DNA from: Chlamydiia bacterium
GTDB taxonomy: Bacteria; Chlamydiota; Chlamydiia; Chlamydiales; Rhabdochlamydiaceae
Length of the DNA: 64,000 nt
Reading direction: 5' to 3'
Assembly: GCA_963804085.1 (NCBI GenBank)
Contig: CAWDOQ010000019.1
Location: 32,001 to 96,000 of the forward strand
Of this stretch, positions 43,636 through 50,498 are shown piece after piece. The notes below the pieces were generated by a model that worked only from the letters and a program-made list of their open reading frames with translations, made no database searches and was not told where the DNA came from. Position 1 is the first letter of the stretch. Each line of letters opens with the position of its first letter. Both the position numbers and the translations under genes were made by a program.

Positions 43636-46516
43636 TCACTCAAGGAGAAGCACTTGTGGCAGGATATTGTCTTTGTCAATGGCTCTTAAAAGGGTATAGC
43701 CAAAACCAGATGCACCTTGCATAAAGCTAGGATCAAAATAGGGGCGAGTTTGTTTTTTATACTGGTGGATCAGCGAAGAGATTGTAGGGCGTAGAAGATC
43801 CTTTAATTCAGGCAAAATGACACTTGCTGAGCGCAAAAATTCCCATTTTCCACATTCTCCACAGCAAAGTGTGATGTTTTCATTGGATAGCAGGGTTTTT
43901 CGAGTCAATTCGACAGAAGTTGTGATTTCCTGGTGTATTTCTTCGTCTTGCAAAAAAGGAAGAGAAGCTAATCGGCCAAAACCTACTCCAACCGCACCAT
44001 GACACCATTGAACAGGAAAAGTGGGCTCTTTTTTATCGCTAAATCGTGGCCAATTTTTTTTCTTTGAGCAAAAATGCCTGCGTTCAAAAGCAAGCGCTCT
44101 TTTCACTGTTTCAAGAAAATTGGGTTGTTTTGTCTCATTTCCTAACTTGAGAAGAGAGTAGGTGATCCCCGCAATTCCATGAGAAAACCCTAAAAAACAA
44201 AACCCTTTGCAATGTTTCCAGGCAAGAGAGCCCTGCTCATCTTCTTGCGCATGCATTCTTAATTGTTCCGCTGCCATTTTTGCCAGTTCAAGGATCGGTT
44301 CCTCGGTTGTGTCTTTCCATAAGGAAAGAAGAGAGAGTATCAGGCCTGCTCTCCCGATCACGATATCAAACATTTTGTCATTATCGAAATGCTTCTCATG
44401 AATCGAATGAGCTAGCAAGCTTGCTTCTTTAAAAAGAGCTGGCTCTTGAATGAGCTTTCCGATTTTGGAAAATCCATAGATTATGCTCCCCACACCCGAC
44501 ATGCCACCAATGCCCATCGCATCCGCCATTCTTTTACCCATGCCTTTTCGGATCTTATCTTGGATGCTTTTGAGTGTGCTTAAGGTAGCCTCTTTCCATA
44601 TTATGTTCTGGGTAGTTGCATAAAGAGCAGAAAAGAAAAGGGCGATACCCACCTTGCCACTATATAGACAGTCACTTATAGCCCGCAGCTCATATCTACT
44701 ATATCCAACATTGGGCTCCAAATGGATCCATCCTAGAGAACCATCATTGGAGCGTATGGCATCATGCAAAATAGTATATCCTATTTTTTCTGCTTCTTGC
44801 AAAATTTCTTCATCGCCCACATTCTCTTTAAGAATAGGGGTAGCTTTAGATTTTTTTGTTTTTCTCTTTTCTTGGGTGTGGAATTGCGCGTCCCTCGCAT
44901 AAAAAGATTTGCGAATGAAAGCCTCTTGCTGCTGGCACTTATCCTCAGACATGCTTTGAATCCGTTCGATCGCCGAATTATAGCCGTTCTTCTCAAGACA
45001 ATCGCACAAGATAAACTCTTTTCCAGAATAGAGGTGTTGCTCTTTTAGAAATCCGAAAAAGAGAGGCGCATCTCCTTGAAGAAGCGCTCGTTTTTCTTCT
45101 TCGATTAAGGGAGCAAGATGTTCTAAGCCTGGTTCAATGAGCAAAGAGGCAAGCAGCTTGAGCTCTTTTTTTTTGTATCTCTTTATCTAAAATTACGTGG
45201 GGTAGTGCAAGCTGATCGAGTAAATATCCATAAAGGCGAGTGGAGCGAAAGACGATGCGCACAGGAGATTTTGCGAATTGATCTATCCATCCTCCTTTTT
45301 GGGTAAATAACGAGGTTTTTTGCGCGATGAAACTATACATGCATTTAAAGCCGTTTACGATCTCTTCGATATAAGCATGGGCTTCTCGAAGAGAGTTATT
45401 ACATACCACTTGGTGATACAACCACTCCTTTTTTTCCATCTCTTGATAATTATATAATTCATCCGTTCTCAGATTTCCCCATTTGAGAACAGAATATGCG
45501 ATATTTTCGCCTGTCAATCCTCCGATGTCAGGCCCACGTTCACCTTCTCGCTCAAGAAAAACGGGAAGGAGTGCGGTTTTTAAGACAGAATGGTTCATAA
45601 GCTCTTTTTCGAGCTGTCTGTCTTTGCGAGTGAGCTCGGAATGAAAAAAAGTTTCAAAATCGATCAAAATAGGATATTCACCAGCTGCGATGATGTTTTC
45701 AAGGTGGATATCCGTTCCATCAAAAAGATAAAGAAGACATAGGAGCATTCCAGCCCGCTCAAAGTAGCGTGCTACTTGCTTTTCATTTTGACAATGCCTG
45801 TGCTCCACCTTCTCTTCCCACCCATACCCTGCTCTTGAAAGAATTCGATGTCCTTTAAGATCTAAGGGAAGCCCTAATTGATTGAGCTCCTCTAAAAGAG
45901 CATGAAAAGAGCGGGCAAGCGTAAGATTTTTTGGTTTATAATAGAGCTCTTTGCCACACTCGAAAAGGAGATGATAGACAGAGCGTCCTCCCTGATGATA
46001 ATCCCCCATGTTTTGAGTCGCTTTAACGATTTTTCCAAGAGAGACCCCTCCATTGAATGTTTCTGCAAGAAGGTTTAGATCCTCTTCCAGTCGATTTAAA
46101 AACTCTATCGTTTGATCTACCCACAGCTCCAGAAGAATGGTAATGAGGCGACCCAGTTCTTCATATTCAGAAAAAAACTTCCTTAGTCGCTTTTGGTTCC
46201 AAAAGGTTTGATGCATGAAACTGAGATAGCGTGCTTTCGCTGTTTTGCCAGCGAGTTTTCCTTGGGATTTTAAATACGACATCTCGAATGCAAAAGTGGA
46301 GGTTGCGACATCGACCCACCTGTGCACAAGTGCTGCCTCCATTTGGATGATTGCTTGTGGGAAAAGATATTTAAGCTGCCTTTTCGTCCTCTTCTTTACC
46401 CTTCTTCTTGCTACTTCTAGCCAGGGCCAAAACCCTTCCACAAAAGGAAGATTATGCATCGTTTTAGGAACGGGGGCTGGATGGGATGCAGAAATGATCT
46501 CTTTAAGTATTTGCAT
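43636..46516 (-). CDS. lanM: Class II lanthipeptide synthetase LanM, split by one extra A in an A9 run (45166-45174)
   Basis: Dehydratase motifs GDYHQGGRSV, YYKPK, GTDIHLENIIA, IDFET, RSTRLY and GDAP; cyclase motifs LYSGKVG, GFSHGIAG, WCHGAVG, LCCG and FMQGASG. Removing one A gives a 959-aa ORF. Confidence 0.92.
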
Positions 46517-46573
46517 CTGTTTTGTTCTTCACCTTAGTGCGTTTTAATAGCTCGTTGAGTTATAGAGAGGCTT

Positions 46574-48267: not shown

Positions 48268-48275
48268 TAGCGCAT

Positions 48276-50498
48276 TTAAAATACAATGCCTCTATTGATC
48301 AGGCCGAGAGGGTCTAGGGTTCTTTTTATTTCTTGGAATTTCCCGTAAACCTTCTCGCCAAAATATGCGCGATAATCGAAGTTTTCTGGAGTAATTTCAG
48401 CTTGGATGTATCTTCGGAAATTTGGGTCTATCAGCACGATCTTGTGAAACTCTTTCTCAAGATTTAAAAGCTCCTGTCTATCGAATCCTTCAGGCTTTTT
48501 TGGCAATCCCCAAACAGCACTTAGAACAAAATCCCCTGTGGACGGATAGAGAAGAGGTGGATTGAAATCAGTGCATTTGAAAGAAGCGCGGAAAAATTCA
48601 CAAGGGATCCATACATCTAAGTGTTCCTTCTCATATTTTCTAAGTAGAGATGCTGCTAAGCTTGCTTTGCTAATCGATGATATGAGAGAAAACCAACACA
48701 TTTTAAGCCGAAAGGGGTGTGTGTTTTTGACTCTTCCCTTGGTCCCCAGTGGATAGACCACTTGACCTCTAGGAACAATCTTGATTTTAGCCTTAGTAAA
48801 ATATCCCAATTGTCCCATAGAGCCAAATAGCCAAGGAAATAACTGATCATCTTTTTTACACAAAACAACCTGGCCCTCTGCTGTAACAAATTCTACCTCT
48901 TCAACTATGTTCCAAAAAGCATTATCACCACTGCCAAATCCAATACCCCCCGCAGAAATGAATCCGCCGAGGCTAGGCGCTGAATAGCTGCCATTATATA
49001 CTGTGAGTCGATAACCATATCTTGCAAGGTGCTCATTTAAATCCCAGACGTTTACACCAGCTTCGACAGTCACAGTATCTGCCTCTTCAAAACTATAGCT
49101 ATTCAGAAGATCGGAACGTATTAACAATTCGCCCTTTTTTGGAAGAGAAGATCCGTTGCAAGAGTGTCCATTTCCACGAATGCGCAGAGAAAGTTTATGT
49201 TGATAAGCCATCGAGATGATCTTGCAAACATCACTGCAGCTTTTTGGGAAAATTTCATAAAAAGATCCACTACAAGAACGGTATTCGCTAAAATCACTTA
49301 TTTTCTCTGAACGTTCTGCGATATAAGAAGAAGGAAAGAGCTGTAAGATCGGGTCATTTCGCGTCTTTTTTGACTGATCATTTATAGGTTTAGTAAGTAG
49401 AGGTTTTTGTGCAGGCATTTCGATAGCCAGGTGTCCATAAGACACATCTAAGTAGATCTTCGCTTTGATCTGTTGATGGCTTTCTGGATTGTATATGAAC
49501 TTGATATGGTGAATGTTTCTAATCACTTGAAGATAAGAGGTTGGATTTTTGCTTGAGACAGCGCTGTTTGGATAAAATACACTTTGATCCAGTGATTCAT
49601 AAAAACCTCCGATCCACGAGAGAGCTCCTTTTTGTTTTTCCGGGGTGGTGAATCCTTCATGCACCAGGAATTGCAAAAAGGCCTCCCATCTTTTTCTTCG
49701 TTCTGAAAATGTGAGGTCTGAAAGAAAACTGCATTCTATGCCCAGTTTCGATTGGATTTGTTCGGAAAGATCTATGTGGAGGACCACATGCGATATAAAT
49801 GGCGCTATCTTCTGTATAAAGTTGATCAATTCTTCTCTTTTGTGCAGGTAGCCAACCTTATCTAAAAAATCTCCCAGTGCCTTTCCAGAAGTGCTCAAAC
49901 TGTCAACACAGAGCCTCACACCCTGTCGGGTTCTGGGAAGCATAAAACCAACAAAGTTGATTTTGAGATTTTTAGATAGACATTCGTCACACACCTTTGA
50001 AAGTAGAGCAGCTGGTAGATCAGCGTCAATTTTTAAGAGTGAGAAAAATCCTCGGCAACATTTCACAAGATCTTTCACTTGTGGTCCAGGAAAATAGAGA
50101 TTAGGATCCGGAGGCCATTGTGAGGAACTCCCGACATCAAATTCTGTCCACATGAAATCTATATTTTCTTGCCAAAAAAAATCGTGTTCTTGCGCCTTTT
50201 GCAAAAACGCGAAATAAAGAGACCATAGCTCGCTTTTGCTTATCTCATGAGAAACTTCTCCTTTATGAAAGCTTTTGAGAAGAGAATATAAGTCGGCTAC
50301 AAATAGTGGCATTCTAATCGAAAGATCTACCCAATATTCATCTCCATCCAGTGGGCATTCATAGCCGTAAAAATTGCAATTCATTTTCGGAAGATGAGTG
50401 AGAAATTCTCGTAAACGTTGGATGGATTCATTACCTGCAAGAGCAAGCGGAAGATCCTGCAGTGTTTTTTCAATTATGAATTTTGCATCTAATTGCAT
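48276..50498 (-). CDS. Two-domain protein: putative prenyltransferase-like N-domain plus PCMH/VAO FAD-linked oxidase
   Basis: C-half has RGNGHS, SLGGFISAGGIG, GSMGQLG and KRTLDPLGLINRG (FAD_binding_4 type). N-half has YGYEC, WTEFD, GFMLPR, KLGIEC and HHIKF...KAKIYL; this assignment is by recalled similarity only. Confidence 0.7.
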   Translation of the reverse strand: MQLDAKFIIEKTLQDLPLALAGNESIQRLREFLTHLPKMNCNFYGYECPLDGDEYWVDLSIRMPLFVADLYSLLKSFHKGEVSHEISKSELWSLYFAFLQKAQEHDFFWQENIDFMWTEFDVGSSSQWPPDPNLYFPGPQVKDLVKCCRGFFSLLKIDADLPAALLSKVCDECLSKNLKINFVGFMLPRTRQGVRLCVDSLSTSGKALGDFLDKVGYLHKREELINFIQKIAPFISHVVLHIDLSEQIQSKLGIECSFLSDLTFSERRKRWEAFLQFLVHEGFTTPEKQKGALSWIGGFYESLDQSVFYPNSAVSSKNPTSYLQVIRNIHHIKFIYNPESHQQIKAKIYLDVSYGHLAIEMPAQKPLLTKPINDQSKKTRNDPILQLFPSSYIAERSEKISDFSEYRSCSGSFYEIFPKSCSDVCKIISMAYQHKLSLRIRGNGHSCNGSSLPKKGELLIRSDLLNSYSFEEADTVTVEAGVNVWDLNEHLARYGYRLTVYNGSYSAPSLGGFISAGGIGFGSGDNAFWNIVEEVEFVTAEGQVVLCKKDDQLFPWLFGSMGQLGYFTKAKIKIVPRGQVVYPLGTKGRVKNTHPFRLKMCWFSLISSISKASLAASLLRKYEKEHLDVWIPCEFFRASFKCTDFNPPLLYPSTGDFVLSAVWGLPKKPEGFDRQELLNLEKEFHKIVLIDPNFRRYIQAEITPENFDYRAYFGEKVYGKFQEIKRTLDPLGLINRGIVF

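Follow-up and report, generated by a model that had tools for sequence, protein, structure and literature searches.

The window analysed here is a stretch of 64,000 nucleotides (nt) from a Chlamydiia bacterium (positions 32,001 to 96,000 of contig CAWDOQ010000019.1, assembly GCA_963804085.1), and the element of interest is a gene cluster at 43636-50498 for a peptide that is made by the ribosome and modified after translation (RiPP). A first-pass annotation, made from the letters alone, had predicted four genes for this segment, and all four are present: a split lanM gene for a class II lanthipeptide synthetase, a gene for an enzyme that binds flavin adenine dinucleotide (FAD), a gene for a precursor peptide with an NHLP leader, and a gene for a two-domain protein of 740 amino acids (aa).

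According to base composition and comparison with relatives, the four genes form a unit of their own. GC content is 0.40-0.42 over 44001-50000, and 0.48 in the flanks on both sides. Two copies of an 83-nt direct repeat, 93% identical and spaced by 7054 nt, flank the low-GC segment. The left copy (43546..43628, plus strand) is the 3' end of a MORN-repeat gene at 42700-43623, and the right copy (50600..50682, plus strand) is an orphan duplicate of that end. At the corresponding site downstream of dnaK (dnaK/RseP site), all four relatives examined lack the island genes, the methyltransferase gene, and the MORN-repeat gene, while RseP is found in 4 of 4 and the GH3 glycosidase in 1 of 4. The segment of ~7 kb is probably a horizontally acquired RiPP island. 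The host genome is a draft of 2.13 Mb in 24 contigs with 4.97% contamination.

Precursor peptide and lanthionine synthetase

The precursor open reading frame (ORF; 47950-48267, plus strand) encodes 105 aa and matches TIGR03793 with 66.4 bits (cut-off 50.9), residues 11-89 corresponding to model positions 4-77 of 77. The leader comprises residues 1-89 (47950..48216, plus strand) and ends in EELEKIAAG; the model stops at residue 89, the Gly of the AG site. Directly after it begins the 16-aa core SGHCLPTTVSWGGGCI, which together with the stop codon occupies 48217..48267 (plus strand) and contains 2 Cys, 4 Ser/Thr, 1 Trp, and 1 His; the first-pass annotation had given the identical core. The leader can be aligned with those of 12 further chlamydial NHLP precursors. 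No radical-SAM match is found among the island ORFs, so the peptide is not a proteusin in the original sense of the term, which implies a radical-SAM epimerase in the cluster; the name is also applied loosely to any NHLP-led RiPP.

The LanM is encoded by two overlapping minus-strand ORFs, which are the only matches to TIGR03897 (cut-off 304 bits) in the whole genome. The 460-aa ORF (45134..46516) is the N-terminal half with the dehydratase domain and matches PF13575 DUF4135 with 306.5 bits and TIGR03897 with 384.1 bits over model positions 3-428. The 502-aa ORF (43636..45144) is the C-terminal half with the LanC-like cyclase domain and matches PF05147 LANC_like with 199.7 bits and TIGR03897 with 378.5 bits over positions 448-931, a range that becomes 433-931 when the whole genome is searched. 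Thus, both domains score over the family cut-off, as the precursor does over its own, and the first-pass identification of the two partners passes the profile checks; yet the LanM is found here in two ORFs rather than in one polypeptide of ~900-1100 aa. WCHG and LCCGECG motifs are readable in the translation of the 502-aa ORF. The CCG motif, which would supply three Cys zinc ligands, is reported as the mark of ProcM-like enzymes in the accessible part of PMC8524650, and by this motif the present LanM is assigned to the ProcM-like subgroup.

The frame break coincides with a run of nine A on the minus strand (45166..45174). Downstream, the frame stays open as far back as 45186; by frame arithmetic one A fewer would join the two ORFs into ~959 codons. 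A public contig of 151 nt (run X2, depth 2.1) covering 45057-45208 omits one base at 45166 and is otherwise identical. Public-run coverage of the island consists of 44752-44902, 45057-45208, and 45167-45315 and bears on these parts only. Because it is a single contig at low depth, which may moreover derive from the source sample, the eight-A version is weak evidence for an intact LanM. In relatives, intact LanM genes have one uninterrupted frame of 921-1073 aa. The frameshift may be a true lesion of the gene, but it may also be a polymorphism or an error of the assembly.

The two-domain protein and its family

The 740-aa protein (48276-50498, minus strand) consists of an N-domain resembling ABBA (PT-barrel) prenyltransferases (residues 1-357; 49428..50498, minus strand) and a C-domain of the VAO/PCMH flavin oxidase type (residues ~400-740; 48276..49301, minus strand). 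Residues 1-390 have no match in Pfam or NCBIfam. The AlphaFold2 model of the N-domain, built on an alignment of 45 sequences, has a predicted local distance difference test value (pLDDT) of 90.8 and a predicted TM-score (pTM) of 0.88, and consists of repeated helix-strand-strand-helix units. In the Foldseek search of PDB every listed match is an ABBA aromatic prenyltransferase (6-DMATS, PriB, NphB/Orf2, AmbP1/3, CdpNPT, EpzP, FgaPT2, FamD1, CloQ, and FunA are among them), with a best E-value of 1.9e-6, 75 matches at E<=1e-3, and TM-scores of 0.37-0.59. VIA structural alignments cover model residues 1-357 and reach Z values of 14.2-17.4 with 254-303 residues aligned; MpnD ranks first (Z 17.4, root-mean-square deviation 4.3, 297 residues aligned), and 130 chains have Z of at least 8. 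Because the model is confident and its structural matches are ABBA prenyltransferases, the predicted fold speaks for the prenyltransferase that the first-pass annotation had guessed.

Six residues located on barrel strands (E47, D121, R189, K333, K347, and Y349) are invariant across 45 diverse members of the family, a pattern compatible with binding and transfer of a prenyl diphosphate. Prediction of a complex between the N-domain and the precursor gives weak support for their contact, with a score of 0.57 vs 0.00 for the best of 3 controls, contact agreement between runs of at least 74%, and partner pLDDT of at least 71. The mark applied to such predictions is reached by 116 of 157 solved complexes and by 2 of 215 mismatched pairs; only 18 of the 157 solved complexes reach it with a score of 0.60 or lower, but both mismatched pairs that passed did so in this range.

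As for the C-domain, it matches PF01565 FAD_binding_4 with 89.9 bits (cut-off 26.4) over residues 416-547. The best phmmer match in PDB is L-galactonolactone dehydrogenase (4.6e-11), followed by cytokinin oxidases, xylitol oxidase, EncM, and BBE-like enzymes; all these matches are limited to the FAD subdomain, and the substrate-binding half has no sequence match. The combination of the two domains is rare: among 5.8 billion clustered proteins it occurs in 2, the protein itself and one homologue of 754 aa (P0002). A further protein of 750 aa with the same N-domain (P0155) was considered as a third VAO fusion and rejected, its C-terminal half being unrelated to the VAO domain.

The N-domain family itself is large. 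When 1.84 billion representative proteins are searched exhaustively with phmmer, 1061 relatives appear at E<=1e-3 and 371 at E<=1e-10, most of which are stand-alone proteins of 330-390 aa; none of 15 stand-alone members scanned has a Pfam match. According to a hidden Markov model (HMM) of the family, this genome carries three members, each directly adjoining an NHLP precursor: besides the fusion protein these are genes of 338 aa on contig C17 and 364 aa on contig C12. Within a sample of 400 genomes of the phylum the family is carried by 5, this genome included, and in the others all six loci have an NHLP-leader ORF ending within ~150 nt of the gene start. Combined, all genes of the family that the sampled chlamydial genomes contain (9 of 9) stand beside an NHLP precursor.

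One of these genomes (G359) has a 350-aa member, 32% identical to the N-domain, followed after 13 nt by a stand-alone FAD_binding_4 protein of 461 aa. Over 164 aa the latter has 26% identity with the C-domain, with which it also shares a G-H-S-C-N-G stretch. Judged from these similarities, the gene pair is a split form of the fusion, and the pairing of prenyltransferase and VAO domains recurs. Other domains to which the family is fused are SHC-like terpene cyclases (P0092 from Cerasicoccus, P0150, and the metagenome locus L067), 2-oxoglutarate-dependent oxygenases (the cyanobacterial P0108 and P0142), and a methyltransferase (P0098). A single open frame of 1500 aa on a metagenome contig (L062:614-5113) contains DUF4135 (312.7 bits) and LanC-like domains followed by an ABBA-family domain at 1128-1497, and is either a LanM-prenyltransferase fusion or two genes without an intervening stop codon. 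At L020 (G031:C6:157079-161086) an NHLP precursor and an ABBA-family gene are accompanied by an MbnB/TglH/ChrH enzyme (333 bits), a DUF2063 protein, and a radical-SAM gene, a combination of tailoring enzymes that is different and apparently undescribed.

Outside the phylum, JGI metagenome contigs were scanned with a Myxococcota-like subfamily, which yielded 14 loci. Three of them have NHLP or Nif11-like precursors, four of which end in Arg-Trp (RRW, SRW, GRW). Since these cores end in Arg-Trp, the sequences point to the C-terminal Trp as the acceptor in this subfamily. The precursors beside the ABBA-family genes at L066:191-583 and L072:466-1568 combine such Arg-Trp ends with hydrophobic cores rich in Gly, Ala, and Ile.

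Flavin monooxygenase, NHLP peptides in the genome, and neighbouring genes

The remaining island gene (46574..47899, plus strand) encodes a flavin monooxygenase of group A (PHBH fold) with 441 aa. It lies between lanM and the precursor, inside the low-GC segment; the precursor, encoded on the same strand, follows 50 nt downstream. PF01494 matches above its curated cut-off, with 30.1 bits, over residues 35-99 only; a GAGPAG motif (GxGxxG) is located at 39-44, and a G-D pair near 357 is conserved in an alignment of 5 sequences. The AlphaFold2 model based on these 5 sequences is of moderate quality (pLDDT 77.3). Its best Foldseek matches in PDB (E-values of 6e-16 to 1e-13) are the MICAL monooxygenase domain, tetracycline destructases such as Tet(50), PHBH, FlsO1, and PnpA; a methanobactin-cluster monooxygenase and rifampicin monooxygenase are also matched in this range, and almost all of the top 50 belong to group A. 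Thus, the two flavoenzymes expected by the first-pass annotation prove to be one group-A monooxygenase fold and one VAO-type domain. A reading of the former as a halogenase was rejected: no WxWxIP-type motif of halogenases is visible by eye, the best structural matches are hydroxylases, and the halogenase RadH takes rank 41.

Relatives of the monooxygenase are few in a word-indexed search of 5.8 billion proteins, which returns only four. The closest (P0004, 46-48% identity) comes from a contig of 6199 bases, as does the sole homologue of the fusion protein from the same source, and the two would accordingly share one contig. A profile search at E<=1e-15 finds the monooxygenase family in 20 of the 400 phylum genomes, this one included. 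The members from nine other phylum genomes (L077 and L079-L086) are 28-33% identical and have Fic, kinase-like, malectin, and unknown proteins as neighbours. The MICAL monooxygenase domain, i.e., the best structural match, oxidises a protein substrate. From the modelled fold, a role of the family as a secreted effector is conceivable. Scanning genome contigs with the monooxygenase alignment gives 19 unrelated loci with 23-60% identity over short N-terminal stretches, where only the generic FAD-binding motif is shared.

The genome contains seven NHLP precursors over the cut-off, distributed over five contigs. The six other than the island precursor (L011-L016) are located at C22:74268-74480, C2:337526-337756, C17:162990-163220, C12:24219-24446, C19:198175-198405, and C19:110054-110278. 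Leaders are conserved across all seven, and cores are hypervariable and unrelated. In five cores Cys is found along with Ser or Thr; a sixth contains Ser and Thr but lacks Cys, and the seventh contains none of these residues. The last belongs to the C17 precursor, which therefore is not a lanthipeptide and whose neighbour is the 338-aa ABBA-family gene. In total, 3 of the 7 precursors have a prenyltransferase neighbour. Prenyl supply is represented by two polyprenyl synthase genes.

On contig C22 the precursor stands beside a TolC-like protein, an NHLP HlyD (TIGR03794, 185.2 bits, cut-off 156.2), and a TIGR03796 ABC exporter with a C39 peptidase, the sole C39 domain of the genome. The exporter gene is split at C22:68734-70897 into ORFs of 300 and 430 aa (334 and 557.7 bits, cut-off 853.3). 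The GH3 glycosidase gene, a neighbour of the island, is likewise split (window 40577-42200) and is contiguous in the relative G248. These two splits are either indel errors of the draft or ongoing gene decay.

Regarding the phylum, NHLP precursors over the cut-off are found in 40 of the 400 sampled genomes, with up to 13 matches in one, and LanM over the cut-off in 14 of 400. NHLP precursors and LanM are thus not unusual in the phylum, which qualifies the weight that the first-pass annotation gave to the lineage. Eleven LanM loci of relatives were inspected with 1.5-kb flanks, and six have an NHLP precursor there; a monooxygenase or prenyltransferase is found at none. Full-text literature searches returned no study of lanthipeptide or NHLP systems in chlamydiae, and the accessible part of PMC11317633 notes a predicted lanthionine synthetase in Candidatus Algichlamydia.

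Several further features of the window and genome may be mentioned. MORN-repeat proteins adjoin two of the three prenyltransferase clusters (window 42700-43623 and L014:3600-4517 on contig C12) and terminate in the CaaX-like tetrapeptides CVIL and CIIL, respectively. A crude regular-expression screen finds 10 ORFs of at least 150 aa with a CaaX-like ending in the genome. Such an ending is a signal recognised by eukaryotic geranylgeranyltransferase, and because CVIL and CIIL resemble it, the sequences suggest that the two MORN-repeat proteins are host-lipidated effectors. The window also encodes hrcA-grpE-dnaK and, at 31979-33562, an NTP/NDP exchange transporter (TIGR00769, 716.6 bits) of the kind typical of obligate intracellular bacteria; both agree with the host assignment. 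The chlamydial marker PF03504 matches neither this genome nor any control genome and so carries no weight. The first part of the window (1-10600) has a GC content of 0.59-0.63 vs ~0.47 in the remaining window, ORFs overlapping in several frames, and only partial matches to NuoL, NuoH, NuoG, and NuoF. This part may have come from foreign DNA or from a chimeric join made in the draft assembly, or it may be what is left of an acquired nuo operon after decay.

Proposed pathway, alternatives, and known systems

The reading that we favour, with a probability of roughly 0.6, is that the island encodes an NHLP-leader class II lanthipeptide which is probably also prenylated and then oxidised. From the gene identities and folds we infer the following steps and their order. 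The 105-aa precursor would be bound via its NHLP leader, and the ProcM-like LanM would dehydrate Ser and Thr residues of the core and link the two Cys into as many as two thioether rings. The ABBA-fold domain, guided by the leader, would move a prenyl group from a donor onto the core, with Trp11 as the likeliest acceptor and His3 or a Cys as alternatives. The fused VAO-type oxidase may then dehydrogenate the prenylated residue or cyclise it oxidatively, and the group-A monooxygenase may add oxygen through hydroxylation, epoxidation, or sulfoxidation. Finally, the NHLP exporter with its C39 peptidase and its HlyD and TolC partners, encoded on another contig, is expected to cleave after the AG site and export the product. 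The cluster would thus be one member of a dispersed system with seven NHLP precursors, three prenyltransferase paralogues, and one LanM. A single LanM cannot serve all seven, because two of the cores lack Cys and one of these lacks Ser and Thr as well.

That last point is one of several that weigh against the favoured reading, and the others bear on its alternatives. The LanM is frameshifted in the assembly at the nine-A run, and its intact allele depends on the one 151-nt contig of depth 2.1; the exporter, required in trans, and the adjacent GH3 gene are also split, neither of them at a long homopolymer, and decay is possible for this reason. The island might thus be a decaying remnant whose LanM and exporter have been inactivated and which yields no mature product in this organism, all the more as the LanM genes of relatives are single frames and the GH3 gene is contiguous in a relative. 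However, the other three island genes are of full length compared with their homologues (441 aa vs 432-476 for the monooxygenase, 740 vs 754 for the fusion protein), and the public contig that restores the LanM frame differs from the assembly by this one base only. Runs of nine A are moreover rare in the genome (35, vs 343 runs of eight), which fits a slip or an error of the assembly, and in a contaminated draft of 24 contigs some indel errors are plausible. We consider decay unlikely. The monooxygenase could be a mere passenger, in which case the product would be a lanthipeptide that is only prenylated and oxidised by the VAO domain. Its homologues occur in varied non-RiPP contexts: at the nine chlamydial loci examined, neither an NHLP precursor nor a prenyltransferase lies within 1.5 kb. 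The enzyme is also missing from all 11 LanM loci of relatives. One observation that the first-pass annotation had named as refuting it, flavoenzyme homologues that do not co-occur with NHLP precursors, is thus partly made for this enzyme. Its gene nevertheless sits within the low-GC island between lanM and the precursor, just upstream of the latter and on the same strand, and its closest homologue and that of the fusion protein seem to come from one contig. The role of the monooxygenase in the pathway is therefore uncertain, and the passenger view is a serious possibility, though short of an even chance.

As for the N-domain, an ABBA fold alone is no proof of prenyl transfer. None of the 45 family members matches the prenyltransferase models of Pfam (Trp_DMAT, PTase_Orf2, DUF5838) even at E<=10, and the family profile finds nothing at E<=1 among PDB sequences; a hit to myosin light chain at E<=10 was rejected as a chance match. 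In the protein atlas, prenyltransferase families appear for the N-domain only below a score of 0.9. The search for precursors in the metagenome loci, which relied on a custom leader HMM and a double-glycine heuristic and did not include a Nif11 model, found none in 11 of 14, many of which end at the gene. The domain may therefore share the fold of prenyltransferases and serve instead as a leader-binding scaffold for the fused oxidase, or transfer a different group. Such a view would agree with the absence of sequence matches to known prenyltransferase families, with TM-scores of just 0.37-0.59, and with fusion of the family to enzymes as different as an oxygenase, a methyltransferase, LanM, and an oxidase, as would also be expected of a recognition module. 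A conserved active site, however, fits invariant charged and aromatic residues on the barrel strands of 45 members better than a docking surface does, and stand-alone members with only a precursor adjoining, as at the C17 locus, would be left without a catalytic partner. Fusions with class II terpene cyclases are sensible only if an isoprenoid is attached, and NctPC, an enzyme of this architecture, is reported to geranylgeranylate Trp (PMC13290415, accessible part). A role other than prenyl transfer thus appears improbable, even more so than decay of the island.

A more specific version of the favoured reading is that the fusion protein carries out prenylation and then flavin-dependent oxidative cyclisation or dehydrogenation of prenyl-Trp (or prenyl-His) on a thioether-bridged peptide, the product being one of seven exported NHLP peptides that would reach the host cell interior from an obligate intracellular chlamydia. 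This is a speculative proposal that we regard as rather doubtful in full; if true, it would provide a scaffold not yet seen in RiPPs, and membranes of the host or of competitors could be targets of the lipidated peptide. Taken together, the earlier interpretation is partly supported. It was largely right on the parts and on the prenyltransferase, for which the modelled fold (Z 14-17.4 over ~290-300 residues) and the 9 of 9 neighbouring NHLP precursors both speak; its monooxygenase part is unproven. Its claim of an undescribed system was overstated, since leader-dependent prenylation and fused ABBA enzymes are published (MppC and NctPC); the rarity of the VAO fusion, 2 in 5.8 billion proteins, is the part that stands.

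The wider interest of the locus lies in several directions. Leader-dependent peptide prenyltransferases were first characterised in 2024-25, and macrocyclic peptides that bear a lipid attract interest as drug-like scaffolds. A natural fusion of prenyltransferase and VAO domains, with one other example and one split version, predicts oxidative tailoring of a peptide-bound isoprenoid. Recognition of a large family without a Pfam or NCBIfam model (>1000 representatives) as an enzyme partner of NHLP precursors would allow its annotation and genome mining. Precursors, LanM, prenyltransferases, and a dedicated exporter together give a first described picture of dispersed chlamydial NHLP peptide systems, which raises the question of what use an intracellular bacterium has for exported modified peptides.

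Among known pathways, ergot alkaloid biosynthesis (DMAT synthase and a BBE-like oxidase) and the cannabinoid oxidocyclases share the logic of aromatic prenylation followed by flavin oxidation or cyclisation of the VAO/BBE type. In contrast to the single polypeptide that is predicted here to act on a leader-bound peptide, those enzymes are separate proteins working on free small molecules; the island could thus encode a peptide counterpart of ergot- or cannabinoid-type chemistry, if the specific proposal above is true. With the prochlorosin system (ProcM/ProcA), as described in the accessible part of PMC8524650, the genome shares one LanM with a CCG motif, several scattered precursors, a conserved leader, and hypervariable cores. 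It differs in having seven precursors rather than dozens, NHLP instead of Nif11 leaders, three precursors with a prenyltransferase of their own, and two cores without Cys. Cyanobactin prenyltransferases (PagF, LynF, TruF) have the ABBA fold too, and their acceptor is a peptide side chain. In contrast to the leader guidance proposed here, they act without a leader (PMC12715784); none of them is among the top structural matches listed for the N-domain, which also has no sequence match in NCBIfam.

The closest parallels are two recently published enzymes, both compared here by their published description. MppC of Moorena producens PAL is an ABBA prenyltransferase that geranylates C5 of Trp in a peptide with a Nif11 leader that LanM has cyclised, and it is strictly leader-dependent (Wakeel, McShan & Agarwal, JACS 2025, PMC12715784). 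In the MppE/MppM/MppC set as in the island, a class II LanM and an ABBA-fold enzyme accompany a precursor whose leader, long and structured, belongs to the Nif11/NHLP clan; MppC is itself soluble, acts after cyclisation, depends on the leader, and targets a core Trp (PMC12715784). The island differs from it in the NHLP leader, the fusion of the prenyltransferase to a VAO domain, the group-A monooxygenase, and the chlamydia-like host. NctPC, according to the accessible part of PMC13290415, is an ABBA prenyltransferase of low similarity to the cyanobactin enzymes that is joined in one protein to a class II terpene cyclase; it transfers a geranylgeranyl group to Trp of a RiPP, and its cyclase domain then cyclises the installed geranylgeranyl group. 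An ABBA-fold prenyltransferase fused to a second enzyme is the feature shared with the island protein, and P0092, P0150, and L067 have the prenyltransferase-terpene cyclase architecture described for NctPC in that part of the source, so that P0092 and similar proteins are probably its relatives. Because the fused partner in the island protein is a flavin oxidase and not a terpene cyclase, the reaction after prenylation would be an oxidation, in place of a cyclisation driven by protonation. Since prenylated peptides with Nif11/NHLP leaders have already been published for MppC and NctPC, the system is not a new class: the logic of the cluster is known from these two, and what sets it apart is the fused VAO oxidase, the additional monooxygenase, the NHLP leader, and the host.

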